A stretch of DNA of 64,000 bases from an uncultured Candidatus Saccharibacteria bacterium (GTDB lineage: Bacteria > Patescibacteriota > Saccharimonadia > Saccharimonadales > 2-12-FULL-41-12). Made by a program: the position numbers and the translations under genes. The notes beneath the pieces were generated by a model that saw only the letters and a list, made by a program, of their open reading frames with translations, searched no databases and had not been told where the DNA came from. Numbering within the stretch: the stretch's first letter is position 1; the number at the start of each line of letters is the position of its first letter. Positions 470 to 55,107 of the stretch are shown piece after piece. The stretch is taken from NCBI GenBank assembly GCA_964615775.1, contig CAZTQB010000005.1:1950-65949 (forward strand), given 5' to 3'.

Positions 470-1777
470 CTAAGGGGTAGCGGCTAGCTCACCGGGCGAT
501 CTAAGCAAAGTTATCCATGTTTGGCCAGCATCAAGAGCGATAGGTTTACCCGTAGCATCTTTAAAGGTAATTTGCTCTTTGTCGGCTGTTTTGGTCCAAG
601 TGCCTTTAGTCATTTGTCCATCTTGAAAAATAGTTGCTTCTCCTGAGCCAATAATAGCGTAGACCGAATAAATATCGTTTTGTGACCATGGTGCGACCAT
701 CGCTACTACCACTTTGGGCGAGATTTGCTCGCCAGAACGATAATCTGTGTGTGGCTTGCCGGCCAATGAGCGTTTGTATGTATTAGTGGCGGCATCGTAA
801 GCATAAGAGGTGTTATATAGTTGCCCAGAAATATTCATTGTAATGTTGGATATGGTTGGTGGCTGATTCTTTACCTCTTCTTTACGCAGAAAACCTTTAG
901 CATTAGATGACGTATAGCCGCGTCCTTGTGCTGCCTTGTCCAGATCAACAGTGCTACTGTATAGGTTGTGCGGTGCATATCGATCTGAAACTCGCCTAAA
1001 AGCTGCTCCATTGGCTCCATGATCGAGGTCTTTTAGGCCAAGTTCACTTAATTTATTCAAACCGTCGCCACTACCGCCAGCATGAACGAAAATCGGGTCA
1101 AATGGGGCTACAAGTTGAGCATAATATGGCCTCACGGAGCGGATTGGTCCAATATAATCTGGCTGAGCTTCCTGAAAAGATGCATTAAAACGAGTGATTC
1201 CGCCTTCAGCGATTGCCTCAAATACTACGCCGGCTTGCAACAAACCTGACTGAGGCCGAGCATCGGGGCTGTTTTCTATCTGTATAGAGGTTATTGGTCG
1301 TTTGTTAGAGCCAATCGGTACCTGAATGCCGGTTAGCGTAGAGGCTTCGGTAGTTGGCTTTGGTGGTTCAACTTTTTTCTCGGCTACTGGTTGCTTAACT
1401 TCGGCTGGTTTATCTTTTTTGAGAAATAGTGCATAAGCACCATACGAAATTGCTGCCAAAAGTAGGACTATTACAGCGATAACAATAATTTTTTGCTTCT
1501 TACTGAGAGCATTAAACTTTCTGCCTAGTAACTTAAAAGGATTCTTAGAGGTTTTTTGGGTCTCAGGTGGCCTAAAATCCATTTTTTTAGGCTGGTCGCT
1601 CGTAAAATCACTAGGGTTATTATCGTTATCAATATTAATCGGTTTATCAATGCTTGTATCTTCGGAAACTTGGTCATCTAAGGATTTATTGGGGTCAAAG
1701 ACACCTGGTTCGTCACTAATTTGGTCGAATTTTTTAAAATTTCTATCAGAGTTGTTTGGTTTTATATCATTGTTCAT
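470..1777 (-). CDS. DUF3048 (YerB-like) domain protein, membrane anchored
   Basis: N-terminal TM (IIVIAVIVLLLAAISYGAYALF) followed by 'IENSPDARPQSGLLQAGVVFEAIAEGGITRF', 'IRSVRPYYAQLV' and 'FVHAGGSGDG', the conserved DUF3048 core. Confidence 0.6.
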   Translation of the reverse strand: MNNDIKPNNSDRNFKKFDQISDEPGVFDPNKSLDDQVSEDTSIDKPINIDNDNNPSDFTSDQPKKMDFRPPETQKTSKNPFKLLGRKFNALSKKQKIIVIAVIVLLLAAISYGAYALFLKKDKPAEVKQPVAEKKVEPPKPTTEASTLTGIQVPIGSNKRPITSIQIENSPDARPQSGLLQAGVVFEAIAEGGITRFNASFQEAQPDYIGPIRSVRPYYAQLVAPFDPIFVHAGGSGDGLNKLSELGLKDLDHGANGAAFRRVSDRYAPHNLYSSTVDLDKAAQGRGYTSSNAKGFLRKEEVKNQPPTISNITMNISGQLYNTSYAYDAATNTYKRSLAGKPHTDYRSGEQISPKVVVAMVAPWSQNDIYSVYAIIGSGEATIFQDGQMTKGTWTKTADKEQITFKDATGKPIALDAGQTWITLLRSPGELAATP

Positions 1778-1823
1778 GCTTAAGGCTATTCTATCAAAAA
1801 CTCGACGAATATATCAAGAAATA

Positions 1824-3296
1824 TTAAGCTAGACTCTTTATATGACTTTGAATACGAGCTAGACTTAGTGGTTTGGCTAGTAGTTCTAATGTGTCTGCTA
1901 AGCCGGGGCTAGCTGGACTTTCTGTAGTGGCAATACGAATAAGACTAAAAAGCTCAGCTGGTTTTTTGCCGGTTACTTCTAGTAAATTATTGAGTGCATT
2001 TTGAATATTATCAAATGACCAGTCATCAATTTTATTAAATTGGTCATATGAAGTTTGTAGCAAGTTAGCTATTTCTGCACTAGATAGTTTTTTGAGCTGT
2101 TTGTGATTGCTTATCAGATCATGATTGACGGGTAGATCTTCAAAGAAAAAACGGCTCAGTCCATCAAGCTCGTCAAAAGTTTTAAGTCGCTGCTGAGTTA
2201 ATTTTAAGACTTTGAGTCGGTAGTTTTTGTCAAATTGATTATTGTAAGCTGATTTCGGCCAAAAATGTGAATTTATAGGATTGTCATTGAACGGCGAAAC
2301 AATCCTATATAATTTCTCTAAGTCCATGTCTCGGATATGCAAACCCTGTAGCCAAATTAAACGTTTTTCATCAAATCTGGCTCCTGATTTTTGAATTCTA
2401 TCAAGACTGAATTCTTGTATAAGTTCTTTTAATGAGAACATCTCTTTAGTTGTTCCGTCGTTCCAGCCCAAGCTGGCTAAGAAATTTATAAATGCCTCTG
2501 GCAAATAACCTTCCTCTCGGTACTGTAGTATGTCTTTGGCTCCGTCGCGTTTCGATAATTTCTTGTTGCCGTTTTCGTTCATAATTGGTGGCACCGAGGC
2601 GATAATTGGTGGTGAAATTTCTAAAGCCTCGTATAGATTTAGGTAGTTTGGCGTACTGGCCAAAAATTCTTGGCCACGAATAATATGTGTAATTTTCATC
2701 TCAAAATCATCGACAATATGTGCGAAATTGTAAGTTGGAAAACCATCTGACTTGATCAAAATAAAATCATCAATTGCTTCTTCGCCAGCTTTCATGTCTC
2801 CCATAACTTCGTCGTGCCATTGGTAAGCTTGCGGCCGAGACAAAAATCTAATCGGTTGGTTTTTGGCAAAAACTGTATTTAGGTTATTGGGCCGATGATT
2901 ACGGTATAAAAAAGGTTGTTTGGTAACTGTAGCTTGCTCACGGAAACCTTGGATTTCTGTTTGAGAGTAGGGGTCGATATATGCTCTGCCATTTTCCAGT
3001 AGTTTTAAGGCATACTGTCGATAAATCTCTAGCCTTTCGGACTGAAAGTAATTGTTTTTTTGAGCTTTAGGTAATGGTCCTTCATCATAATCTAGTCCAA
3101 GCCAATCTAGACTGTCGATAATATGCTTAACACTACCTTCAACCTCTCGGCTTTGGTCGGTATCTTCTATCCTTAGAATAAACTGGCCGGCTTTTTGTCG
3201 GGCTAGCAGCCATGCAAAAAGTGCTGTTCGCACGCCACCAACATGCATGTAACCCGTTGGACTAGGAGCAAAACGCGTCCGAATGTTATTGTTCAT
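1824..3296 (-). CDS. gltX: Glutamate--tRNA ligase
   Basis: Class I aaRS HIGH-type motif 'PSPTGYMHVGG' and KMSKS-type 'KLSKRDG'. Length (490 aa) and overall pattern fit bacterial GluRS. Confidence 0.93.
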   Translation of the reverse strand: MNNNIRTRFAPSPTGYMHVGGVRTALFAWLLARQKAGQFILRIEDTDQSREVEGSVKHIIDSLDWLGLDYDEGPLPKAQKNNYFQSERLEIYRQYALKLLENGRAYIDPYSQTEIQGFREQATVTKQPFLYRNHRPNNLNTVFAKNQPIRFLSRPQAYQWHDEVMGDMKAGEEAIDDFILIKSDGFPTYNFAHIVDDFEMKITHIIRGQEFLASTPNYLNLYEALEISPPIIASVPPIMNENGNKKLSKRDGAKDILQYREEGYLPEAFINFLASLGWNDGTTKEMFSLKELIQEFSLDRIQKSGARFDEKRLIWLQGLHIRDMDLEKLYRIVSPFNDNPINSHFWPKSAYNNQFDKNYRLKVLKLTQQRLKTFDELDGLSRFFFEDLPVNHDLISNHKQLKKLSSAEIANLLQTSYDQFNKIDDWSFDNIQNALNNLLEVTGKKPAELFSLIRIATTESPASPGLADTLELLAKPLSLARIQSHIKSLA

Positions 3297-3337
3297 CTAA
3301 TTTATAATAACAGATTGAGTCTTGAGACCACTAATAT

Positions 3338-4429
3338 TTATAAGCTGTTGGCTAGTCTGATAATTTGGTCACTAGATAGCTGAGTATTTCCGCCAATTTT
3401 GTAGATTATGCCACTGTTTACCCAGGTTGCATTGGAGTTATCGTAGATGTAGATAGTTTTGCCGTTGGCTTGGTAAGTTTGGTAGCAGCTGGCACATTGT
3501 TCTTTGAGAACTTGATCTGATAGTAAAGTAGAACTATTCCAGTTACTGGCAGTTTGAGTAAGTTGAAATTCATTGCCGCTACTATTGGACTTAAAGGCGA
3601 TATTGACACTACCTGGACTAGATTGAATGTTGCCAACCGAATAGCCCGCTGGTCGATAACCAGGTAGATTGGCCGAGATGCCTGACTTAGAAGCGGCCAT
3701 CTTCATTGATATAATTGCTGAGTTTTGGTAAACAAAAAAGCCTATTAGTAGAGCAAAAGCAAAGCTCATAGCTGCAATATTGGCAAAACGATTTTTTAAC
3801 CCAATTCTATTTAGTATAGGCATTTTCTTAATAACCGAATCTTCAAGTTGCTGCAGGTGTGAGTTTGCATTAAGTAGAGCATTTTCTATTTGCTCTAGTT
3901 CACTATTCACAAAATTGTTAGTCTGCTGAATAATGTTTTGAGGTGTATTACTTGGCCTTACTACTTCTAATGGTTGGTGTTTCTTGACAACTGCATGACG
4001 TGGCCTCATGTGTGCAAACCTACTAATATTTGGACTCTTTATTGACGCTTCTGCTCTTTTCTGGCGACTAATCGAATTGCCTATACCGATTACTTTTGTT
4101 GTCTTTTTTATTTCTGCGATATTATTTTTTATAGTCGGCTTTTTTAGAGACGGTCGCATGAGTGTATTAGATTTTGCTAGCTTTCTTTTAGTTTGATTAA
4201 CATTGGCAGGTTGGCGTACTTTTCTTGATTGTAAGCTAGATGCAAAGTGTTTGGGCTGATCTTTAGATTGTCTAATAAAATTATCCAAAACTTGCTGGCT
4301 TTCATGGGGTGTATTTGGTTTTACGGGTTGCGAGCTGATGTTATCGAAGTTTTTTTGAGATAAAACTTGTCCTGTCCGAGCGTCGTACCTAACACCGTTA
4401 AGTTCGATTGTTGTTTGTGAGTTTGCCAA
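3338..4429 (-). CDS. Hypothetical single-pass membrane protein
   Basis: Basic, Ser/Gln-rich N-terminal half, one TM (IAAMSFAFALLIGFFVY) and an extracytoplasmic C-terminal domain ending 'IYKIGGNTQLSSDQIIRLANSL', reminiscent of DUF4367-type C-termini. Function unknown. Confidence 0.5.
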   Translation of the reverse strand: MANSQTTIELNGVRYDARTGQVLSQKNFDNISSQPVKPNTPHESQQVLDNFIRQSKDQPKHFASSLQSRKVRQPANVNQTKRKLAKSNTLMRPSLKKPTIKNNIAEIKKTTKVIGIGNSISRQKRAEASIKSPNISRFAHMRPRHAVVKKHQPLEVVRPSNTPQNIIQQTNNFVNSELEQIENALLNANSHLQQLEDSVIKKMPILNRIGLKNRFANIAAMSFAFALLIGFFVYQNSAIISMKMAASKSGISANLPGYRPAGYSVGNIQSSPGSVNIAFKSNSSGNEFQLTQTASNWNSSTLLSDQVLKEQCASCYQTYQANGKTIYIYDNSNATWVNSGIIYKIGGNTQLSSDQIIRLANSL

Positions 4430-4573
4430 GAATCTATCCTTTTAATTTTTCGGTTTTAATACTAATGCTTATATATTAACTCTATCAATGAATTTTTTCA
4501 AAATATTTTATGAAAGTCAAAAAATTAAGGCTATATTTTATTGTAAAAAAGGCCAGTATAGTAATATTAAGAT

Positions 4574-6091
4574 ATGGATTTTCTAGACCCTGATTTCAAA
4601 AGACGCCGTAATCAAAGGCTGATGCTTGGTTATGTGTTGACAGCAACAATGATTTTTTTGATTGCTGGTATCTTGGTTTATGCCGCCTATGGCTTTAATC
4701 TGGATAGAAAAACTGGTGAGGTTGTTCACAATGGCTTGTTGTATGTAGATTCTGCCCCAGATAAGGCAAAAGTTGAACTTAAAGGAGTTGGATCGGACAT
4801 TAAACTTGATGCCCAAACGAACACTAAAGTTACTGTACCTGATGGTGAATATAATATTAAAATTTCTAAGAACGGTTACCGTGACTGGAATCGAAAGATG
4901 GATATATTAGGTGGAACAGTTTATAGAGTGACCTATCCTCTGCTTATTATGAGTGACTTAAAACAAAATAAGATAGCAGATTTTGGGGTAACAAAACCAG
5001 CATTTACCACAAGTAGTCCGGACAGACGTTGGATTGTGAAGGCTGACAATACCCTGCCTCTTGTAATAAATGTGTTTGACCTTAAATCAGTTGATAAAAG
5101 CCAAAAAGTACCAAAAAACACACAGCTGACTTTGCCAAACATCATAAAACCGGCTGATGGCACAGAAGTATTTGAAGTTGTGGAGTGGTCGACTGACAAT
5201 AAGAATTTTTTAGTCAAACATAACTATGGTAGTGGTGTCGAGTTTCTGGTTATTAACCGCGAGCAACCGCTTGAATCTGTAAATCTAAATGATCTTTCTG
5301 GCCTCAAGCCTACCAATGTTAGCTTAGATGACAAAGATGCTGAAAAGTGGTATTTTTACTCTGATAAAGACCTGACACTAACCCAGGTTAATAATAAAAA
5401 AGAGACATCCTTAATCAAAGAACGAGTCACGACCTATACATCTCATGGTAGCAACACACTAGTTTATGCTCAGAAAATTTCAGATACTGAGCAGAAGGTC
5501 TATCTACGTAAAGATAACCAAGAAAGGCTAATCGGTTCATACAAACCAGGGCGAATTGGGCTAAAAATAACAGAATTTGATGGTGATTGGTTTTTGGCAG
5601 TCTCTAGCGGTGGAGACGGCAAGACCTACATATACAAAAACCCACAAAAAGTAATCCGATCGGTAGCTAATTCTACAGGAGTAAACCCGATTAATGCAAT
5701 TGGTTTTGCTGATAGCTTGGCCAACCCAACTTTCTCGGCTAATAGCCGGTTTATTCTGGTCAATAATGACAAAAAATTTGGAGTTTTTGATGCTGAAAAA
5801 GTCGAAATCTACACCTATAATATAGATGATACGATTAATCTTCAGAACTTTAAGCCTAAATGGATGGACGGACATCGAATTATGTATTTAACAAGTCATA
5901 ATATGATAAAAATAGTTGATTTTGATAACAATAACAAACAAACTTTAGTCAAAAGTGATGATGTTGATCATGTTTTTTTTGACCGTGATTACACGGTTAT
6001 GTATACAGTGCTAAGCAGTCCAGCTACAGAATCATCATTAGCTAGCAATATCTTAAACTACACTGACCTGCGATTAGATAACGATAAGTAA
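4574..6091 (+). CDS. PEGA domain-containing membrane-anchored protein
   Basis: N-terminal TM (LMLGYVLTATMIFLIAGILVYAAY), a PEGA-like segment 'KVTVPDGEYNIKISKNGYRDWNRKMDILGG', then a long beta-rich extracytoplasmic region. Confidence 0.6.
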   Translation: MDFLDPDFKRRRNQRLMLGYVLTATMIFLIAGILVYAAYGFNLDRKTGEVVHNGLLYVDSAPDKAKVELKGVGSDIKLDAQTNTKVTVPDGEYNIKISKNGYRDWNRKMDILGGTVYRVTYPLLIMSDLKQNKIADFGVTKPAFTTSSPDRRWIVKADNTLPLVINVFDLKSVDKSQKVPKNTQLTLPNIIKPADGTEVFEVVEWSTDNKNFLVKHNYGSGVEFLVINREQPLESVNLNDLSGLKPTNVSLDDKDAEKWYFYSDKDLTLTQVNNKKETSLIKERVTTYTSHGSNTLVYAQKISDTEQKVYLRKDNQERLIGSYKPGRIGLKITEFDGDWFLAVSSGGDGKTYIYKNPQKVIRSVANSTGVNPINAIGFADSLANPTFSANSRFILVNNDKKFGVFDAEKVEIYTYNIDDTINLQNFKPKWMDGHRIMYLTSHNMIKIVDFDNNNKQTLVKSDDVDHVFFDRDYTVMYTVLSSPATESSLASNILNYTDLRLDNDK

Positions 6092-6138
6092 CCTAGTACT
6101 GCTTAGTTAGTTTAATTTTTAGCTAGGCAGATTGTAGC

Positions 6139-7383
6139 CTAGTTAAACAATCTTTGCCATAATGACGGTGAGTTACTAGGTAGCTTATCCGATTTTACAA
6201 AACTTGTATCAGATAATGAACTTTTTATATTGGTTTTTGGATCTGGAAAGATTTGTTCAGCATTAACTATGAGTCTATGTGTGGATGTGCCGGGTGGGTC
6301 GCAGGTGATCAAAGTTAGGATTGAGCTTCGTTGAGGGTCGGGTTTAAGTACGGAAAAGTCAGTTGGGTCAGTAACATGCTTGTCGTACACTTTATATACA
6401 TAACGTTTGCCATCTTTTTGAACAATTATATTGTCATCTTTTTCTAGACTTTTCAGCAGTATAAAGGCAAACTTGTATTTTCCCTTGTTTAGAATGTTGC
6501 CACTAGAGTGTCCGAAAATTACAGTATTGCCAGTTTCGCCGGGATTGGGAGTGGTGATATAGTGTACGACTCCTTTTTCTAGCCCTACCTGGACATCTTT
6601 TTCTTCGATGCTAGGCACATCATAGATTACCGGTACCTCTAAGTTTATCTTCGGGATAATTATTTTTGGCTCAGGACCAACTGGTCCACTGGAATTAGGG
6701 TCGATGATGATAGGTGTAGCACTAACGGTTCCACTGGGGCGGATAAATGGTACAATAAAACGCTCATTAAAGAAGCTGAGTAGTAATATAAAAACCACTA
6801 CAAAACCCATACTTAATCCAAATGCTAACGATTTTACATGGTGGTTTTGTTTGATTTTTGCTAATTTTCCAGGGCGATTTCTAGGGTTAGGTAAGGTTTT
6901 TTGTTCGAAAACTCGTTTGCTGCCTTTTCGGCGTGGAGTATGAGGGCGGTTTGGGTTTGTTATGTGAGTCTCGGATTGATTTTGTTGAGTGTTGTGAGAA
7001 GCATGAATAGCCGGTTTTTCGTCTAATTCATTAGCTTTTTCGGGGTGATGATGTTGCTTTTTGTGAGCTTGTTCGGCATAGAATTCTTGCCAAACTTCTC
7101 TCTTCTCTTCGTCATTTAATTTTTGGTAATATTCATGCCAAGCGGTCTGAATTTCGGCAGTGTCTTTACCGGAGTCATTAAGTCGTTTCATGTACCTTTG
7201 GTGTTTAGACAGTGGCTCCTTATAGGCGGTCATTTCCTTTACTTCATTGGCTTGTTTTTTAGCATTTGGCTCGTGGCTATAAATTGCATCTAATTTATGC
7301 CTAATAAGATTTACAGCTTCGTCATGAGTCTGCTTTTCGCTAGATTTTCGTAACTCGGGTGGAATTAGTTCGTCTGGGTTCAT
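6139..7383 (-). CDS. Sortase family transpeptidase with long N-terminal cytoplasmic extension
   Basis: TM anchor (LAFGLSMGFVVVFILLLSFF) followed by catalytic signatures 'NTVIFGHSSG' (His) and 'LTLITCDPPGTSTHRLIV' (TLxTC Cys plus Arg). About 190 aa of His/Lys/Glu-rich sequence precede the TM. Confidence 0.8.
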   Translation of the reverse strand: MNPDELIPPELRKSSEKQTHDEAVNLIRHKLDAIYSHEPNAKKQANEVKEMTAYKEPLSKHQRYMKRLNDSGKDTAEIQTAWHEYYQKLNDEEKREVWQEFYAEQAHKKQHHHPEKANELDEKPAIHASHNTQQNQSETHITNPNRPHTPRRKGSKRVFEQKTLPNPRNRPGKLAKIKQNHHVKSLAFGLSMGFVVVFILLLSFFNERFIVPFIRPSGTVSATPIIIDPNSSGPVGPEPKIIIPKINLEVPVIYDVPSIEEKDVQVGLEKGVVHYITTPNPGETGNTVIFGHSSGNILNKGKYKFAFILLKSLEKDDNIIVQKDGKRYVYKVYDKHVTDPTDFSVLKPDPQRSSILTLITCDPPGTSTHRLIVNAEQIFPDPKTNIKSSLSDTSFVKSDKLPSNSPSLWQRLFN

Positions 7384-7519
7384 ATACTAAAGATATTATA
7401 GTATAATTCTATAGATAACGCCTAACGTTGTTATGTTTATTTATAGGTTAAGGGGGCGATAGATTTTGTCTATTATGACCTTTTATAAGAGTAGCTAATA
7501 ATATCTAGCGAGGTTTGTT

Positions 7520-7605
7520 GCCGCAGTGGCGGAATTGGTATACGCGCACGACTCAAAATCGTGTTCCCTAGCGGATTGAGGGTTCGAGTCTCTCCTGCGG
7601 CACCA
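7520..7605 (+). tRNA. tRNA-Leu (anticodon CAA)
   Basis: Hand-folded cloverleaf: acceptor GCCGCAG/CTGCGGC, anticodon stem CACGA/TCGTG with loop CTCAAAA, long variable arm, T-arm GAGGG-TTCGAGT-CTCTC, encoded CCA. Confidence 0.9.
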
Positions 7606-7655
7606 AACCATCTAGATACACCAATTCCTGTTTGAAATTCAGCCAGATTGTTAAA

Positions 7656-8417
7656 TTACTCGATTATTGATGTAGCTATTGCTTGCAGCTGCTTTTTGGG
7701 TTGCTGAATAGCCCAAACCATTCCCTTGCAAAAGTTGTATTTTTGTTGGTCACAAGCAATAACTTGGCTACCTTGAGCCAGCCAGATAGTTGAGTTAGTA
7801 TACAGAGCTAACGTGGTAGGAAAATTCATAGAGATTTTGCTTAACGATTCAGCGATTAACCAGTTAGGAGAGTCCGAGGTAATTGGCTTGTCAAAGCTCA
7901 GACTAATGCCAATTTGTTGTAATGTTTTTATGTCTATCTCTAAGATTGTATTATCTCGAGCAAGTAGACTTTGCCAACCCAGGCTCAAGCTTTCTAGGCT
8001 ACTAGAGTTTATTCCTAGTAAACCTCTGTATTTGCTCAAAAATTTGTCAAGTGTCAGGGAAGTTTCACTATTTTTGCCCATATTACCTGCAAGCATTATC
8101 CCATCTACGTTTTTAGCAAGATCTAACATTTCAGACAGCGATCTCTCGGCAAAACTACCGCTCCTATTGGCTGGTCCGTAATGTATAAAAGGAATATTTT
8201 TGGTTACTTTTTGCAAAGACTCTGGTACAAGTAAAAAACATGCTCCTACACCTGCTTGTTCGGCCATAGTGTAGCTTTGGGCGACATTAGCTAGGTTGTC
8301 GGCTGAGCCACCGACTATCAATAGCTTGCCGGCTCCATTTCTATTTTCTGGGCGTGACCATAAAATGTCCGGAAAAAGTGGCTCATTTTTCTGGGTCTGC
8401 CAGTTTTGCTGCATCAT
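7656..8417 (-). CDS. YjeF C-terminal-like carbohydrate kinase / putative NAD(P)H-hydrate dehydratase
   Basis: 'GKLLIVGGSADNLANVAQSYTMAEQAGVGACFLLVP' resembles the N-terminal signature of ADP-dependent NAD(P)HX dehydratases (LVIGGS..Y.GA...A..AA.R.GAG). The rest is divergent. Confidence 0.5.
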   Translation of the reverse strand: MMQQNWQTQKNEPLFPDILWSRPENRNGAGKLLIVGGSADNLANVAQSYTMAEQAGVGACFLLVPESLQKVTKNIPFIHYGPANRSGSFAERSLSEMLDLAKNVDGIMLAGNMGKNSETSLTLDKFLSKYRGLLGINSSSLESLSLGWQSLLARDNTILEIDIKTLQQIGISLSFDKPITSDSPNWLIAESLSKISMNFPTTLALYTNSTIWLAQGSQVIACDQQKYNFCKGMVWAIQQPKKQLQAIATSIIE

Positions 8418-8454
8418 AGTTTAATTATAGCGTTTTGTTGTATTCATCAGTGAA

Positions 8455-9348
8455 CTAACTCTTACGATAATAAGCCGAGTTAAATGCACATAGAGTATTA
8501 TAGAGCGTGCCATTACACATGCTTTGTGTGTAATTTTCCTGAGCTTTCTTATCGCTAGCACTAAATCCGCAAACACCCGCAACCCTAACGGCTGCCATTG
8601 GTTCTAATCCTGTTTTTTTTAATAACTCGTTATATCTCTCAAAATATTGAATCAGTCTTGAAGGGTCTATTTTTACCGAACCATTATAATCTTTTGAGTA
8701 TCCCATAGCTTGCTTAATGCCGCTGTATGAAACTTCTGCCCCAAACAGAATGGGCATATCTTCTTTAACGTGCCTTAAGGCGTTTAAAGTCTTTTCTATT
8801 TCTCTTGGTTCTTGAAGGGCTGCTGGAGGTACGATAACAATTCCTGGTCGTCTATTTCCGTGTATTTGCTCTATTTCACCTAAAAATTCCTCTACGAGAC
8901 TAGGAGTTGCAAGCTTGCCCAGCCTTAAGCAGTATGGGTTGAAGGCTGAGTAAAAAGCTAATCGACTATGGTCATTAAGCAAAAACTTACCTAGATTAGT
9001 CATTGCGACTTCTGATCCATTGAAGTGTCTTTCAGGAGTAAGTGAATGGTTGCGTTGACCGGTCAATAAATGTGATGTGTGGAATGGGGTATCTTTCGGT
9101 AAGTCTTCGGCAGTTGTATCAGTAGCTAGGCCAATAACAGGAATTCCTGGAGCTGATTCTCTGGCTATTTTTAAGGCATGTTCTATATCTGATTCTCTAC
9201 ACACATCGAGGATTTTTACTGGACCTCGGTGTGTACCTTCGTAAATACCTATGAGCAAGTGACTCATTGCTTCAATTCTTTCTTCGCTGGCGACATACGC
9301 ACGGCTTGAACAGAGTTCCGGGCTAGTTTCTTGGTTTGTCATAAACAT
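8455..9348 (-). CDS. Hypothetical protein
   Basis: 297-aa ORF with coding-like composition. No motif I recognise. Confidence 0.5.
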   Translation of the reverse strand: MFMTNQETSPELCSSRAYVASEERIEAMSHLLIGIYEGTHRGPVKILDVCRESDIEHALKIARESAPGIPVIGLATDTTAEDLPKDTPFHTSHLLTGQRNHSLTPERHFNGSEVAMTNLGKFLLNDHSRLAFYSAFNPYCLRLGKLATPSLVEEFLGEIEQIHGNRRPGIVIVPPAALQEPREIEKTLNALRHVKEDMPILFGAEVSYSGIKQAMGYSKDYNGSVKIDPSRLIQYFERYNELLKKTGLEPMAAVRVAGVCGFSASDKKAQENYTQSMCNGTLYNTLCAFNSAYYRKS

Positions 9349-9397
9349 ACATTATACCACAAATGTCAACATTATTGTGGCTGTAACAGAAGTGTTG

Positions 9398-10192
9398 TTA
9401 TTTTGTAATTTCAATACTAACCGGACAATGGTCAGATCCCATTTGTTCAGAGTGGATTTTGGCAGATTTTATCTGCGGTTTTAGCTGTTGGCTAACCAAA
9501 AAATAGTCTATCCGCCAACCTATATTTCTAGCCCTCGCATTTGCCCAATGTGTCCACCAACTATAATTGCCATTGCCATTGGTAAATAGTCGAAAGGTGT
9601 CGGTGAAGCCTTTTTGTAGTATTTTTTCAAAACCGGCTCGTTCTTCATCTGTAAAGCCGTGTTTACCGACATTTTCCTTAGGTCGGGCTAAGTCATCTTC
9701 GGTGTGGGCAACATTTAAATCGCCGCAAAAAATAACTGATTTAATAGCTTGAAGACTATCTACATATTCTAAAAATGCTTTGTCCCAAGCCTGTTCACGC
9801 AGTTTTAAACGAGACAAATCGCCCTTAGAATTTGGCGTATATACCGTTACCAAGAAAAAGTCTTCATACTCGGCTGCAATCACCCTGCCCTCTTGGTTGG
9901 TTTTGCCATATCTATCTTCTAAGAGATATTTGTTCGCTATTTCGTCAGGTATGTCATTGATTATAGAGATTGGCTTGATTTTGCTAAATATTGCTGTCCC
10001 GGCGTAACCCTTTTTAGTAGCTGAGTTCCAGTATTCCTCGTAGCCAGTCAACTCTACTGGCGAGTCGCCTTGGGTAGCTTTAGTTTCTTGTAGACATAAA
10101 ATATCAGGATTATGCTTTGAAATAAATTTTTGAAATTCGCCTTTGTTCCAGACTGCCCTAATACCGTTTACGTTCCATGAGTATATTTTCAT
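9398..10192 (-). CDS. xth: Exodeoxyribonuclease III (AP endonuclease)
   Basis: 'MKIYSWNVNGIRA', 'ILCLQETK', 'GDLNVAH' and 'SDHCPV' are hallmarks of ExoIII/APE1 EEP nucleases. Confidence 0.9.
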   Translation of the reverse strand: MKIYSWNVNGIRAVWNKGEFQKFISKHNPDILCLQETKATQGDSPVELTGYEEYWNSATKKGYAGTAIFSKIKPISIINDIPDEIANKYLLEDRYGKTNQEGRVIAAEYEDFFLVTVYTPNSKGDLSRLKLREQAWDKAFLEYVDSLQAIKSVIFCGDLNVAHTEDDLARPKENVGKHGFTDEERAGFEKILQKGFTDTFRLFTNGNGNYSWWTHWANARARNIGWRIDYFLVSQQLKPQIKSAKIHSEQMGSDHCPVSIEITK

Positions 10193-50960: not shown

Positions 50961-51010
50961 TATTCTCATACGCAGTAGCCTATTTCGATGGAAAAAAGAT
51001 ATTCTTTTGT
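50961..51010 (+). pseudogene. Fragment of a HAM1/RdgB-type pyrophosphatase gene
   Basis: 50961-50991 is identical (31/31 nt) to 54506-54536 inside the intact HAM1-like gene and encodes the same 'SYAVAYFDG'. About 20 further nt are similar but diverged. Confidence 0.6.
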
Positions 51011-51882: not shown

Positions 51883-51950
51883 TATTTTCTCCTTTCCAGA
51901 TTTTACTAACTCCAAAGTATAAACACATTAATCATTATACCTGTCTTGCA

Positions 51951-52126
51951 TGTTAAAACTTGCAAATAACATTGAAGATCTGTACTTAAAAGTTGACCGA
52001 GATCAAAAGCGGTCTATTTTAAATCTCATAGTCTCGAACTTTCAGTTAGAAGACAAATTACTGAGGTGGAAATACAAAAAGCCATTCGATTTGATGGCTT
52101 TTTGTGCTAAAAATGCAAATTGGCTC
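51951..52126 (+). repeat. Direct repeat copy 1 (176 bp; serine-recombinase 3'-end remnant)
   Basis: Hand alignment to 54863-55038 gives 168/176 identical, with 1 mismatch in the last 127 nt. Encodes 'LKLANNIEDLYLKVDRDQKRSILNLIVSNFQLEDKLLRWKYKKPFDLMAFCAKNANWL'. Confidence 0.85.
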
Positions 52127-52496
52127 ACGTTAGTGGAAGAGCTAGAGGAGAGTTTTAAACACCCAACAGAGGTGGACGCTCTCACAACTTGCTCCCTCTC
52201 TGCAATTGAAAGCCTACTCCCCCCCTGCTAATAATCCAATCACAGATTGACAATCATGATTACGAGTCTGGATCAGGGCGTCGTACAATGTCGAATATTG
52301 TGCGATGACCCCAGCGAGTAGTTCGTATGTCGTAAAAGAACTTTTGCGACCATACCCCTACCTCCCCTTTGACACTTCTGTTTTTCTAGATTCAGTTCTC
52401 ACGCAAATTTTTTATTACTTCTATACATCCGACAAATGACCTCTGTTGTAAAAAAATGAGTAATATGTCATTATAGAATCAAGAAAGGAAGATGTA

Positions 52497-52934
52497 ATGA
52501 GTAGCCACGATATTGAAACTACTGACTACGATTCTACCCTTAGACTTTACAATTTAGACCTCAGACATAAGGTACGAGGTGTTTGGGATGAAAATATCCC
52601 TATAATTAACCATACCGTTATTGAAGCGCGTGGTCTATCACGATCATTTCTTGACTCATCAAAAAAACTAAGGGCAGCTTGTGATCAATTTTGTAATGAG
52701 GCTAATCTGAAGGTTGTAGAGCGAAGTGTGCATAACTTTAAGCCTGTAGGAAAAACGGTTTTCTATGTTTTAGAAGAAAGTCATATTTCTATGCATACAT
52801 GGCCAGAGAGTGGCTATATACACGTCGACTTAGTAACTTGTACAAAAAATGAATTGACGCCTTTAGAAATGGCCACAATCTTTGATAAATGTTTTAAGCC
52901 AACCCATATCAGACACATAAAGATGAGGTACTAG
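52497..52934 (+). CDS. speH: Pyruvoyl-dependent S-adenosylmethionine decarboxylase proenzyme (small prokaryotic class)
   Basis: 'FYVLEESHISMHTWPESGYIHVDLVTC' is the self-cleavage (E-S) and active-site signature of bacterial/archaeal AdoMetDC. 145 aa. Confidence 0.85.
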   Translation: MSSHDIETTDYDSTLRLYNLDLRHKVRGVWDENIPIINHTVIEARGLSRSFLDSSKKLRAACDQFCNEANLKVVERSVHNFKPVGKTVFYVLEESHISMHTWPESGYIHVDLVTCTKNELTPLEMATIFDKCFKPTHIRHIKMRY

Positions 52935-52938
52935 TTTC

Positions 52939-53622
52939 ATGTTAAATCATAAGGATGTTTTAAAGAACGCACAGATAATTGCAAGCCAGCGTCCCACTGC
53001 CGATTTATCAGTGGAGCAATACTTGATGACCGCAGAGAGTCTCGCTAGACAGGTAAGTTGTTTGCAGAATGTCTTTTTAGACAAAAAGGTATTGCATATT
53101 GGTGATGACGACCATCTGTCAGTACTCTTTGCATTATACCTAAACTGTCATCCTGTCATTTTAGAGTACGATCCAAGAGTAAGGAAAAGTTTGCGGTCTA
53201 GCTTTAGTAGTTTTCGTATACAAAACTACTCAATTCTTAAGTATGATGTAAGAGAATTCATACCGAACGGAGTAAAAGCTGACACGTTTTACATTAATCC
53301 ACCTTACTCATCTAAAAATAATGGTAAGGGCGTTAAAGTATGGGTAAGCAGAGCATCTCAAGCAATACCGATTGGCTCAACTTCAGTATTAGCTTATCCG
53401 ATTGATGAAACGTTACCCTGGACTATATCTTGTCTCAAAGAGATAGTCGATTACGCATACCAGTGCGGCTTAATGATCGTAGACATCAATAGAGATATAC
53501 ATACATACGAATATTTACCAAAAGACCCAGGATTATTATCGTCTAATATATATCTATATAAATTTAAAGAGTGCATAGCTCCAGAAATAGAAGATATAGA
53601 TGGCGAATCATTATATAGATAA
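52939..53622 (+). CDS. DUF43/BpsA-like aminopropyltransferase-fold protein (GDDD + NPPY motifs)
   Basis: 'VLHIGDDDHLSVLFAL' carries the GDDD motif of branched-chain polyamine synthase BpsA/DUF43. 'DTFYINPPYSS' is an (D/N)PPY amino-group-transferase motif. At 227 aa it comprises only the catalytic domain. Confidence 0.6.
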   Translation: MLNHKDVLKNAQIIASQRPTADLSVEQYLMTAESLARQVSCLQNVFLDKKVLHIGDDDHLSVLFALYLNCHPVILEYDPRVRKSLRSSFSSFRIQNYSILKYDVREFIPNGVKADTFYINPPYSSKNNGKGVKVWVSRASQAIPIGSTSVLAYPIDETLPWTISCLKEIVDYAYQCGLMIVDINRDIHTYEYLPKDPGLLSSNIYLYKFKECIAPEIEDIDGESLYR

Positions 53623-54178
53623 AAAGGGTGAGCTTATTGCTGTGTGTGGCAGTTCAGGTTCGGGGAAAAGCACACTTGTAAGGTATGCCTTATCTACAAT
53701 GGTCGATAATCTAGACTATATGAAGACGATAACCACGAGAGAGCCAAGACCTCACGAAGACGATGTTGAGTACACATTTGCCACAAGCTCAGAGTACGAT
53801 CGGATGAGAGATCGGGCCTCCGTGTGGGATGAGTCACTCATCTATGGAAATCGTTATGGCGTCAATGCCTCATTCTATATAGAGGAAATCAGAAAAGGAA
53901 GAAATTTAATTTTTTGTAGCGTACCTTCATCGACTATCCTCGATGGTATGTGTCAAGTATATGGGAAAATTACAACTGTACATCTAAAAACAGATCTTGA
54001 AACATCATTTGAGCGTCAAAAAATGAGAGATGGAGTAAAAAATCTTGGACGCCTTGCCGTCGATAGAGCAATGGACGTGCAAAAAGCCTTCACTGCTGAC
54101 TACATTATGCAGCCTACTGGAGTCATTGATGATGATAAAGCAGAATTTTTAAAGATAATAATGGGGATAATTGAATGA
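53600..54178 (+). CDS. Guanylate-kinase-like nucleoside monophosphate kinase
   Basis: 'VCGSSGSGKSTL' P-loop, 'TTREPRPHEDDVEYTFATSSEYDRM' and 'YGNRYGV' follow the Gmk pattern (TTR.PR..E..G..Y.F; GN.YGT) but are divergent. Overlaps the upstream gene by 23 nt. Confidence 0.72.
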   Translation: MANHYIDKKGELIAVCGSSGSGKSTLVRYALSTMVDNLDYMKTITTREPRPHEDDVEYTFATSSEYDRMRDRASVWDESLIYGNRYGVNASFYIEEIRKGRNLIFCSVPSSTILDGMCQVYGKITTVHLKTDLETSFERQKMRDGVKNLGRLAVDRAMDVQKAFTADYIMQPTGVIDDDKAEFLKIIMGIIE

Positions 54179-54762
54179 ATCAACCAAAAGAAATTTATTT
54201 CGTCACATCAAATAAAAAAAAGTTTGCGAGTCTTAAAAATCAGCTGGAGACGGTAGATATTACCTTAAAACAACTTGCATTTGATTTTGACGAAGGACGA
54301 GATTTAAACATTGAAGCAGTTGCAAAATACAAGTTAACTCAGGCAAAAAAAGCATTTCCTAACAAGAAGTTGATTGTAGACGATAGAGGTTTTTTCATCC
54401 CAGCTCTTAATGGCTTTCCCGGTCCATTTGTAAAGCTATTGCTAGATAGTTTTAGCTACAAAGGGCTTATAAAACTCATGGCAGGCGAAAAAGATCGAAG
54501 TGCAGTATTCTCATACGCAGTAGCCTATTTCGATGGCAAAGAAGATGTCGTTTTTGTAGCAGATGAAACAGGTTTTATTACTAATGAACCAAAAGGTGAG
54601 AATTTGCATGGCTGGACAGAACTACTATACATCTATGGCCATCCAAGTTTTCCGAGTAGAAGCCTGGCTGAATTAGATGATAGCGAATGGAAAGATTACC
54701 TAGCTGCAATCGACGATGTTGACCCATTTTCTTTATTGAAGAAACACTTTCTTAAAAGTTAA
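54175..54762 (+). CDS. HAM1/RdgB-family non-canonical purine NTP pyrophosphatase
   Basis: 'IYFVTSNKKKFASL' and 'VDDRGFFIPALNGFPGPFVK' are HAM1-like motifs. ATGA overlap with the upstream gene. Confidence 0.85.
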   Translation: MNQPKEIYFVTSNKKKFASLKNQLETVDITLKQLAFDFDEGRDLNIEAVAKYKLTQAKKAFPNKKLIVDDRGFFIPALNGFPGPFVKLLLDSFSYKGLIKLMAGEKDRSAVFSYAVAYFDGKEDVVFVADETGFITNEPKGENLHGWTELLYIYGHPSFPSRSLAELDDSEWKDYLAAIDDVDPFSLLKKHFLKS

Positions 54763-54771
54763 TAAAATTAA

Positions 54772-55038
54772 AAGAACTTCAACTTAAAGCTCAAACTTAA
54801 ACAAGAGCGAAGAGAAAGTCTCGAACTCGCCAACGAAGACTATTACAATACGGTTTCTTATCTGTTAAAACTCGCAAATAACATAGAAAATTTGTACTTA
54901 AAAGCCGACAGAGATCAAAAGCGGTCTATTTTAAATCTCATAGTCTCGAACTTTCAGTTAGAAGACAAATTACTGAGGTGGAAATACAAAAAGCCATTCG
55001 ATTTGATGGCTTTTTGTGCAAAAAATGCAAATTGGCTC
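54772..55038 (+). pseudogene. 3'-terminal remnant of a large serine recombinase gene
   Basis: The frame, open from 54772, reads 'LKLKLKQERRESLELANEDYYNTVSYLLKLANNIENLYLKADRDQKRSILNLIVSNFQLEDKLLRWKYKKPFDLMAF...'. This matches the characteristic C-terminal tail of 'recombinase family protein' genes. No catalytic N-terminal domain or start codon is present. The frame runs on into the tRNA. Confidence 0.65.
54863..55038 (+). repeat. Direct repeat copy 2 (176 bp), ending 6 nt inside tRNA-Asn 3' end
   Basis: See copy 1. The last 6 nt (tggctc) are the complement of the tRNA discriminator plus CCA region (GAGCCA). Confidence 0.85.
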
Positions 55039-55107
55039 GGGAGGCCGGACTCGAACCGGCAACCTCGAAGTTAACAGCTTCTTGCTCCACCATTGAGCTA
55101 CTCCCGA
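55033..55107 (-). tRNA. tRNA-Asn (anticodon GTT)
   Basis: The reverse complement folds as acceptor TCGGGAG/CTCCCGA, D-arm GCTC..GAGC, anticodon loop CTGTTAA, T-arm GCCGG-TTCGAGT-CCGGC, encoded GCCA (75 nt). There is one A-G mismatch at the top of the anticodon stem. Confidence 0.88.

Follow-up and report, generated by a model that had tools for sequence, protein, structure and literature searches.

The 64,000-nt stretch of DNA analyzed here (the window) comes from an uncultured Candidatus Saccharibacteria bacterium (GTDB lineage Bacteria; Patescibacteriota; Saccharimonadia; Saccharimonadales; 2-12-FULL-41-12; assembly GCA_964615775.1, contig CAZTQB010000005.1, positions 1,950-65,949, forward strand) and carries, at window positions 52497-54762, a cassette of four open reading frames (ORFs), all on the plus strand. 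Gene 1 (52497-52934, 145 aa) encodes the proenzyme of a class-1b pyruvoyl S-adenosylmethionine decarboxylase (AdoMetDC), and gene 2 (52939-53622, 227 aa) a catalytic-domain-only transferase of the BpsA_C fold. Gene 3 (53600-54178, 192 aa) encodes a divergent nucleoside monophosphate (NMP) kinase with a guanylate kinase fold, and gene 4 (54175-54762, 195 aa) a nucleoside triphosphate (NTP) pyrophosphatase of the Ham1/ITPase family with a remodeled base pocket. These assignments follow from profile hidden Markov model (HMM) matches, in which all four families proposed in an initial annotation of this DNA were recovered (PF02675, PF01861, PF00625, and PF01725), and for genes 2 and 3 also from AlphaFold2 (AF2) models. 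The tight packing described in that annotation was borne out as well: a 4-nt gap (TAG-TTTC-ATG) separates genes 1 and 2, genes 2 and 3 overlap by 23 nt (ATGGCGAATCATTATATAGATAA), and genes 3 and 4 share an ATGA stop/start overlap.

Gene 1 matches PF02675 (AdoMet_dc) with an E value of 1.7e-25 and 89.9 bits against a cut-off of 25, and it passes the equivalog cut-off of TIGR03330 narrowly, at 80.2 bits against 75.65. Its N-terminus bears a clade-specific extension of ~38 aa. The protein contains the pyruvoyl-decarboxylase motif VLEESHISMHTWPE, and in an alignment with the Thermotoga maritima AdoMetDC (1TLU) VISESHLTIHTWPE...FTC pairs with VLEESHISMHTWPE...VTC. Ser63, His68, and Cys83, which are essential in the T. 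maritima enzyme (PMC10407285), thereby have equivalents in gene 1 (ESHISMHTWPE...VTC), and the pyruvoyl AdoMetDC signature recognized in the initial annotation is confirmed by the profile scores together with these conserved catalytic residues. Also retained is the proline of HTWPE, which presumably corresponds to the conserved proline that marks bona fide AdoMetDC (PMC10407285). SpeD homologues neofunctionalized to arginine or ornithine decarboxylases are widespread in the Candidate Phyla Radiation (CPR) and in DPANN (PMC10407285). Because gene 1 keeps both its catalytic residues and the HTWPE proline, it seems unlikely to have undergone such a change, and its predicted product is decarboxylated S-adenosylmethionine (dcSAM).

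Gene 2 matches PF01861 (BpsA_C; E=8.9e-12), with GDDDH as motif I (GDDD at residues 55-58) and NPPYSSKN as motif IV (NPPY at residues 120-123); residues G55-D58 are invariant across its family. The AF2 model (pLDDT 90.8) has a methyltransferase-type fold, for which Foldseek returned BpsA as the best match (TMq 0.80; 5XNC, E=1.7e-13), followed by the m6A rRNA methyltransferases METTL5 and PH1948. Gene 2 is thus similar to BpsA (EC 2.5.1.128; 5XNC, 6J27) in fold and in its GDDD motif, and the two genes together resemble the pair of BpsA and SpeD in that a class-1b AdoMetDC adjoins the transferase. It differs from BpsA in several respects, however. The N-terminal domain of BpsA is absent (227 aa versus ~350 aa), so that the alignment starts at residue 127 of the 5XNC chain (native ~107). 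The C-terminal acidic carrier cluster of BpsA is not conserved in the gene 2 family, which ends instead in an invariant Tyr(-Arg); close to the C-terminus of gene 2 itself lies an acidic segment (PEIEDIDGE) that can be likened to the aminopropyl-carrier tail of BpsA, but such a stretch is not kept in family members P0059-P0063 or in the archaeal members. Finally, motif IV reads DPPE or DPPYT in BpsA and NPPY(S/G)SK in the gene 2 family, with the polyamine-deprotonating Asp replaced by Asn. In Tk-BpsA this residue, Asp225, helps activate spermidine and is among the residues that raise its nucleophilicity (PMC12979288). In the sequence alignment, Asp225 of the DPPE motif pairs with Asn120 of gene 2, which is invariant in 16/16 and 10/10 family members.

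The initial annotation had portrayed gene 2 as a catalytic-domain-only protein that combines GDDD with NPPY. This description stands, except that NPPY is not an added motif, because D/N-P-P characterizes BpsA_C proteins in general (Tk-BpsA: DPPE); judging from the alignment, what sets the gene 2 clade apart is Asn in place of Asp, together with a conserved (S/G)SK after the motif. Amino- and amide-directed methyltransferases likewise use a neutral Asn at motif IV. The (D/N)PP(Y/F) methyltransferases, including METTL5, RsmD, RlmL, Trm11, the N6-adenine DNA methyltransferases, and PrmC, share with gene 2 the Rossmann fold and the position of the NPPY loop, and they are its second-best structural matches. 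They differ from it in motif I, which is GxGxG in the amino-directed methyltransferases and GDDD in gene 2, pointing to dcSAM rather than SAM as the donor, and in the group transferred, which is methyl in these enzymes and is predicted to be aminopropyl, moved onto a free nucleotide, in gene 2. Because Asn takes the place of Asp225, no N-terminal domain is present, and the next-best folds are m6A methyltransferases, the acceptor of gene 2 is probably not a polyamine. We predict that gene 2 is a dcSAM-dependent aminopropyltransferase acting on a nucleobase amino nitrogen. A further argument, from a more basic protein surface, was rejected: median isoelectric point and net charge of the catalytic domains show no difference among clades (pI 5.87 for GDDD/NPPY and 5.88 for GDDD/DPPY), and among the invariant basic residues of gene 2, R80 and R105 also occur in BpsA.

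The identity of the donor is addressed by a survey of 112 loci drawn from genome and metagenome scans and contig look-ups, in which ORFs were called and transferases were classed by motif. The loci were retrieved with NPPY and GDDD peptide patterns, which biases the sample, and counts refer to non-identical proteins. Transferases with GDDD and NPPY adjoin an AdoMetDC gene in 20 of the 24 loci that have readable upstream sequence, while those with GDGD and NPPY do so in none of 29. BpsA-like transferases with GDDD and DPPY (~320 aa, with the N-terminal domain) adjoin an AdoMetDC gene in 3/3 loci (L025, L028, and L030). In Tk-BpsA, the aminopropyl amine of dcSAM is positioned by Asp159 and Asp160 of the GDDD motif (PMC12979288); if dcSAM came from a dedicated supply, GDDD and AdoMetDC should therefore covary, as they do here. 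The earlier proposal that dcSAM is the donor finds strong support in this pattern.

Gene 3 aligns with PF00625 over its N-terminal half, at 25.5 bits against a cut-off of 25.2, and with phrog_1815 (guanylate kinase) over residues 10-171 (3e-17). Its AF2 model has a pLDDT of 76.5, and the top 50 PDB matches are all guanylate kinases, with TMq up to 0.78; according to the model, gene 3 has a complete Gmk fold with P-loop, NMP-binding domain, and LID. The suggestion that gene 3 is a divergent guanylate-kinase-like NMP kinase therefore holds as to fold, by PF00625 and the PDB matches, but not as to the housekeeping equivalog TIGR03263, to which residues 11-105 align with 53.5 bits against a cut-off of 160.45. 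Members of the gene 3 family all have the GSGKST P-loop. Residues T43, R47, R50, Y58, E78, and Y86 correspond to Ser34, Arg38, Arg41, Tyr50, Glu69, and Tyr78 of yeast Guk1, which we take to be the contacts to the GMP phosphate and to N1/N2 in structure 1GKY; all but E78, which is replaced in locus L005 only, are invariant. The conserved P-loop and Guk1-equivalent residues therefore suggest that gene 3 is a true NMP kinase whose substrate has a guanine-like N1/N2 edge. Two other elements, YG(S/T) and (L/I)DxDxQG, are near-universal in the canonical Gmk sequences compared, and their Ser/Thr and Asp residues are presumably the guanine O6/N2 contacts in 1GKY. In gene 3 the Ser/Thr after YG is replaced by V88, at a position that varies among V, L, T, and A, and the Asp residues of (L/I)DxDxQG are missing (C106-S107-V108-P109-S110). 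These losses at the guanine edge would fit a substrate that is altered there. The kinase is also the fastest-evolving member of the cassette, at 45-52% identity compared with 60-70% for its partner genes. In L010 the Gmk-like gene (6665-7257) is split into parts of 70 and 124 aa, with the other cassette genes intact. A word-index search recovered 13 relatives of gene 3, 5 of which lie on contigs of the same sizes as those with gene 2 homologues (8776, 2540, 3213, 16155, and 9767 bp).

Gene 4 belongs to the Ham1 family (PF01725, Ham1p_like, E=1.6e-23), with the archaeal proteins PH1917 and MJ0226 (1e-31) and then KomB (3e-27) as its nearest solved relatives. It falls below the NCBIfam equivalog cut-offs (NF011396, 104.3 versus 203; TIGR00042, 81.2 versus 145.35). 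With the ITPases RdgB, ITPA, and Ham1 and with KomB of the Kongming system (8ZSG) it shares the Ham1 fold and the (S/T)xN..K, Glu, Lys, and DD motifs; the N-terminal catalytic motifs are retained, and E40, K53, and D70 are invariant across bacterial and archaeal cassettes. It differs from RdgB and ITPA in the motifs that we take to form the base pocket, where GFGYDPIF and SHR are replaced by HGWTELLYIY and AAIDDVD. The same replacement, (R/H)GW(T/N)ELL plus an acidic DD segment, is shared by the bacterial and archaeal cassette proteins. Given this remodeled pocket, the substrate of gene 4 is unlikely to be simply inosine or xanthosine triphosphate (ITP or XTP). Hence, of the earlier designation as a HAM1-type purine NTP pyrophosphatase, membership in the Ham1 family is upheld, and purine-NTP specificity is conjectural. 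Going by its family, gene 4 is predicted to convert an NTP into NMP and PPi, either to supply the substrate of the pathway or to control the pool of modified nucleotide. In contrast to RdgB, ITPA, and KomB, the gene 4 clade is always operon-linked to the transferase. In three loci (L092, L107, and L109) a second and more canonical Ham1 gene (183 aa; PF01725, 6.4e-33; best match E. coli RdgB) lies just upstream of the cassette, so at least there the cassette gene is not the housekeeping copy; such second copies were seen only where they adjoin a cassette. The second Ham1 gene is accompanied by a conserved 124-aa protein that belongs to no known family (L092, 1777-2784; L107, 669-1734; L109, 2960-4288).

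Homologues of gene 2 fall into 63 clusters with 36-100% identity, assigned to 'Candidatus Saccharimonas' where the source names them. At least 14 non-identical loci of Saccharibacteria, with differing, unrelated neighbors, show the order AdoMetDC-transferase-Gmk-like kinase-Ham1; this recurrence goes far beyond what chance would give and upholds the earlier view of the four genes as a single operon. The flanks include yebC and ruvC on either side of the cassette (L004), type IV pilin genes (L005), a PAS histidine kinase gene (L001), and genes for a NUDIX protein, an Asp/Glu racemase, and TyrRS (L002). NUDIX genes are found beside the Saccharibacteria cassette in L004, L076, L102, and L110 as well as in L002, which may be due to chance in CPR genomes. 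Altogether, the four genes occur together in at least nine unrelated contexts and, in addition, in archaea. In at least six archaeal-type loci (Woesearchaeota L017 and L023; L019, a metagenome-assembled genome (MAG) labeled Methanosarcinales; L119, L120, and L122), the DPANN-type order is AdoMetDC, NPPYGSK transferase, Ham1, AAA_17 P-loop kinase, and B12-binding radical SAM protein. The archaeal kinase is thus replaced non-orthologously, AAA_17 for the Gmk fold, but is not lost. Among all GDDD+NPPY loci of the survey, a Ham1 neighbor is found in 17/29 and a Gmk-like kinase in 16/29, whereas neither is found in any of the five loci of the DPPY, BpsA-like clade. The four genes are one selected unit that moves between unrelated contexts and between bacteria and archaea.

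At the locus itself, the cassette lies between two direct repeats of 183 nt, neither assigned to a strand, which were found by repeat search at 51944-52126 and 54856-55038. The copies are 94% identical and are spaced 2912 nt apart, one on each side, so that the cassette and one repeat copy make up a 2912-bp unit. The right copy, which forms the recombination junction, abuts the 3' end of a tRNA-Asn (GTT) gene on the minus strand (55033-55107, ARAGORN), a likely integration landmark. The left copy contains the 3' end of a decayed ORF (fragment 51950-52231) and a palindrome (52074-52105). This ORF had no match in Pfam, NCBIfam, or PHROG, and its sole match, in tblastn, was a Legionella plasmid gene product annotated as 'recombinase family protein' (E=0.06). 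In the initial annotation the cassette was described as an islet flanked by recombinase remnants; the islet is confirmed by the repeats and the tRNA-Asn gene, and the single tblastn match makes a recombinase remnant plausible, if weakly supported. Evidence from other samples bears on the same junction. A Logan contig (L115, 2941 bp with a 29-nt terminal overlap, sample ERR10643339) joins window position 55038 back to 51951, so that in another sample the 2912-bp unit is either circular or tandemly repeated. In two further contigs from 99.7%-identical strains (L113 and L114), the match to the window ends precisely at 55038, beyond which they continue into a DUF2130 gene and the window into tRNA-Asn and smpB. 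Mobility of the cassette is well supported.

Other features of the islet are less informative. The 370-nt leader that separates gene 1 from the left repeat (52127-52496, plus strand), which lies inside the 2912-bp unit, has no ORF that matches a family and no promoter call above chance, and counts in the promoter and terminator scan were at chance level. In base composition the islet does not stand out. Repeat search and tblastn also revealed a 35-nt fragment of gene 4 at 50961-50995 (no strand assigned; 97% identical to 54506-54540; peptide FSYAVAYFDGK), which is situated to the left of msrA and looks like a trace of an earlier cassette copy or of a rearrangement. A known defense system was considered and rejected, as PADLOC returned nothing for genes 1 and 4, P-loop noise for gene 3, and for gene 2 a generic methyltransferase match, to the MADS DNA methyltransferase mad2 (6.8e-7).

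Taken together, we tentatively favor the reading, to which we give somewhat less than even odds, that the cassette is a mobile operon for dcSAM-dependent aminopropylation of an amino group on a guanine-like purine mononucleotide, in which the Ham1 protein converts NTP to NMP and the Gmk-fold kinase converts the product to the diphosphate (NDP). In such a pathway, SAM would first be converted to dcSAM by gene 1, as suggested by its intact catalytic triad, its HMM score, and the covariation of neighbors. A purine NTP would be cleaved to NMP and PPi by gene 4, a chemistry in keeping with the Ham1 family. Gene 2 would then transfer the aminopropyl group of dcSAM to an amino nitrogen of the NMP with release of methylthioadenosine, GDDD holding the donor amine as in BpsA and NPPY positioning a neutral amino or amide nitrogen as in the N6-adenine and N2-guanine methyltransferases; here the donor is well supported and the acceptor is predicted. 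The modified NMP would be phosphorylated to the NDP by gene 3, after which a general NDP kinase could make the NTP. The modified base would most likely be guanine-like and carry the group on its exocyclic amino nitrogen, for example N2-(3-aminopropyl)-GMP or -dGMP, and the product could end up in DNA or RNA or act as a small-molecule nucleotide. In archaea, the pathway would include an additional B12-radical-SAM step and a different kinase. That an N-aminopropyl purine such as N2-aminopropylguanine, made at the level of the nucleotide pool, replaces part of the purine in the DNA or RNA of some Saccharibacteria and DPANN themselves is a more specific proposal that we regard as rather improbable.

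Several observations weigh against this pathway. We infer every one of its chemical steps, including the acceptor (a free purine NMP), the order, the regiochemistry, and the choice of ribo- or deoxynucleotide. With both a kinase and an NTP pyrophosphatase encoded in the operon, futile cycling could result if the two enzymes shared a specificity. Bacterial cassettes contain no polymerase, glycosylase, or reader gene. The AdoMetDC gene carries the same frameshift in two loci from two samples (L005, 7588-7997, and L006) and is pseudogenized in a third (L110, 6600-6965), while the remaining cassette genes are intact. In Micromonospora (L012), two high-GC loci (L103 and L104), and a Phycisphaerales MAG (L018), AdoMetDC and the transferase occur without the other two genes; a dedicated kinase and Ham1 protein are therefore not needed for the core pair to work, and the acceptor could differ there. 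In consequence, the three-step, four-gene pathway of the initial annotation holds as a conserved unit, but not in the sense that kinase and Ham1 are essential, as they are accessories to the core in actinobacteria and Phycisphaerales. In three of these loci (L012, 6667-7317; L103, 2276-2848; L104, 7446-7982) the pair is followed by a conserved protein with two transmembrane segments (2-TM; 178-216 aa, 30-39% mutual identity, no family match). Finally, the four-gene order recurs in CPR genomes but not in phages: no gene 2 homologue was found by tblastn in 50,697 phage records of INPHARED, and a scan of IMG/VR gave no confirmed relative, and a phage origin was rejected on these grounds.

Alternatively, gene 2 may act after nucleic acid synthesis, aminopropylating G or A within DNA or RNA (rRNA or tRNA) much as METTL5, RsmD, and RlmL methylate their targets, with the kinase and Ham1 protein salvaging modified mononucleotides released by turnover or excluding them from the NTP pool. 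We consider this a minority possibility, with a probability of a little over one in five. It would be consistent with the finding that the closest folds after BpsA are small rRNA m6A methyltransferases of similar size, with the weak match to mad2, and with sister clades that are fused to or adjoin EVE modified-base readers and HhH-GPD proteins. The actinobacterial versions, which need neither kinase nor Ham1, also fit, and Ham1 enzymes are classical pool sanitizers, a function that matters for CPR and DPANN organisms living on salvaged nucleotides. However, a dedicated NMP kinase that returns modified NMP toward the NTP contradicts a sanitizing Ham1. The maintenance of the kinase through non-orthologous displacement (Gmk fold versus AAA_17) suggests that specific NMP phosphorylation is a step of the pathway, and the cassette includes neither a nucleic-acid-binding domain nor a partner such as TRMT112.

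A further reading, which we regard as unlikely, is that an aminopropyl-purine nucleotide is itself the end product, as a signal, an antimetabolite or antiviral analog, or a biosynthetic intermediate whose phosphorylation state is set by the kinase and Ham1. Its first three steps are common with the favored pathway, and only the fate of the product differs. Such a system could be likened to viperin with its kinase loci, to oxetanocin OxsA/OxsB, and to Kongming, in which a Ham1-like protein handles dITP; the relationship of gene 4 to KomB is in line with the last of these. The sporadic and mobile distribution of the cassette is typical of accessory traits, the B12-radical SAM protein of the archaeal form could be a tailoring enzyme, GDGD relatives occur in settings that resemble defense islands or biosynthetic gene clusters, and the small 2-TM protein of the actinobacterial triad could be an effector or exporter. 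Yet the Saccharibacteria cassette encodes no effector, sensor, or exporter, and the PADLOC results for genes 1, 3, and 4 likewise offer this reading no support.

The more ordinary explanation already considered in the initial annotation, in which genes 1 and 2 are an acquired module for long or branched polyamines (SpeD plus a BpsA-like enzyme) that happens to lie beside housekeeping gmk and rdgB, appears quite improbable. It can draw on the BpsA_C domain and GDDD motif common to real polyamine synthases, on the resemblance of PEIEDIDGE to a carrier tail, on true BpsA-like genes that also adjoin AdoMetDC, and on the 64-kb window, within which no second gmk or rdgB was found. It is contradicted by the linkage of the four genes, which travel together through unrelated contexts and into archaea, by the restriction of Ham1 and kinase neighbors to the GDDD+NPPY side of the comparison with the DPPY clade, by the second Ham1 gene that some genomes have next to the cassette, and by sub-equivalog scores of kinase and Ham1, to which the matching contig sizes of five kinase relatives may be added. 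The loss of the amine-activating Asp and of the N-terminal domain, with an acidic tail that is not conserved in the family, argues in the same direction. Least probable is that gene 1 is a pyruvoyl arginine or ornithine decarboxylase that makes no dcSAM and that gene 2 uses SAM or another donor, a reading suggested by the prevalence of such SpeD homologues in CPR and DPANN and by the narrow TIGR03330 score, and opposed by the covariation of GDDD with adjacent SpeD, by the HTWPE proline (if its position is correctly assigned), and by the lack of an agmatinase, SpeE, or homospermidine synthase (HSS) partner nearby.

The favored pathway would not be without precedent in kind. Pre-replicative base modification is carried out in phage T4 by gp56 dCTPase, gp42 dCMP hydroxymethylase, and gp1 dNMP kinase, and in Z-genome phages by MazZ and PurZ (with DatZ). 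These pathways encode together the same trio as the cassette, namely an NTP pyrophosphatase, an NMP modifier, and an NMP kinase. They differ in that they are phage-encoded, while the cassette is found in cellular CPR and DPANN chromosomes; in that their modifiers are homologues of thymidylate synthase and PurA, whereas that of the cassette is a methyltransferase-fold protein and a predicted dcSAM transferase for a purine amino group; and in that their base enters DNA, which the product of the cassette may or may not do. Another comparison is with a set of 'polyamine-independent' systems that Li, Kurihara, Kim, Liang, and Michael reportedly described in 2019 (a study cited in PMC11107197 and PMC10407285), consisting of AdoMetDC, an MFS-SpdSyn-like fusion, and DUF350. 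Like the cassette, these combine a functional AdoMetDC with a protein resembling aminopropyltransferases that acts on something other than the known polyamines, but their transferase is SpeE-like and that of the cassette BpsA_C-like, and the 2019 systems are membrane-bound and include no nucleotide enzymes. Full-text searches of the open-access literature returned no description of the four-gene combination or of nucleotide aminopropylation, in agreement with the earlier remark that no described pathway was known to aminopropylate a purine nucleotide with dcSAM, although such an absence is no proof; an apparent mention of 'DUF43' in PMC4294206 proved to be DUF433. The pair of donor and acceptor (dcSAM and a nucleobase) would be unprecedented, while the kind of system, base modification at the nucleotide level, is known.

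The wider NPPYGS clade also points to nucleotides or modified bases. In a CPR/DPANN-like metagenome cluster (L038, 5683-13130; also L036 and L034), the partners of a GDGDH/NPPYGSK transferase include a bona fide guanylate kinase (72.9 bits) and a MazG-like pyrophosphatase. The other partners are an NAD_binding_4 reductase, a radical SAM (rSAM)-SPASM protein, a UbiE methyltransferase, and two proteins that resemble an HhH-GPD glycosylase and an Asn synthase. Like the Z-clusters, L038 uses a MazG-like enzyme together with Gmk, and it looks like an uncharacterized pathway of purine hypermodification; in L034, the GDGD-type transferase is found with NUDIX and rSAM-SPASM proteins. One transferase family is accompanied by three pyrophosphatase superfamilies (Ham1, MazG-like, and NUDIX) and two types of kinase, so that pyrophosphatases as well as kinases give way to non-orthologous counterparts without being lost. 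On plasmids of Agrobacterium (pLN1-233332; L118, 18316-20342) and Pseudomonas koreensis (p1; L117), a GDGD transferase forms a three-gene module with an AAA_17 kinase-like ATP-binding protein and a 190-194-aa protein that belongs to no known family. The Agrobacterium module adjoins an AAA ATPase, a helicase, and an ImmA/IrrE peptidase in a setting that resembles a defense island, and the RefSeq name of its transferase, 'bis-aminopropyl spermidine synthase family protein', is probably misleading. A family of ~190 aa with the motifs FWGYGG..CHP and RGRVDKAC is the most common neighbor of GDGD transferases (L057, 3286-3867, and 18 other loci) and has no match in Pfam, PADLOC, or PHROG. Fusions of the BpsA_C-like domain to EVE (P0187, 436 aa) and to radical SAM (P0110, 494 aa) were also found, as were recurrent triads of Peptidase_M78, transferase, and EVE (L058 and L065).

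A conserved cluster around a GDGD/NPPYGSK transferase of 279 aa was also observed in Streptococcus pneumoniae, S. pseudopneumoniae, S. infantis, and S. mitis (L013-L016 and L062-L066, ~765-9739). Its partners are two ABC exporters, two ATP-grasp proteins, a 179-aa protein that has no assignment, a protein with motifs like those of class-I aminoacyl-tRNA synthetases (recognized by eye, with no Pfam match), and a candidate ASCH-like protein (also by eye). We found no description of this cluster.

Our analysis bears on a large and uncharacterized clade of PF01861, the NPPYGS clade, whose members are now often annotated as 'bis-aminopropyl spermidine synthase family' or 'putative methyltransferase', and whose associations point to systems of nucleotide or nucleic acid hypermodification in CPR, DPANN, Firmicutes, and plasmids. 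At 2.9 kb the cassette is compact and self-contained, which makes the hypothesis directly accessible to a test by heterologous expression. To our knowledge, dcSAM is known almost only as an aminopropyl donor for polyamines, so that a nucleobase acceptor, if true, would be new enzymology for AdoMetDC and for the BpsA_C (formerly DUF43) fold. It would be the first nucleobase acceptor for an aminopropyltransferase and would yield a cationic purine modification analogous to putrescinyl-thymine. If the modified base is used in the organism's own DNA or RNA, the cassette would represent the first cellular, non-phage pathway of pre-replicative base modification. Its entry into DNA would have effects on restriction, on phage resistance in these episymbionts, and on the behavior of their genomes in sequencing.

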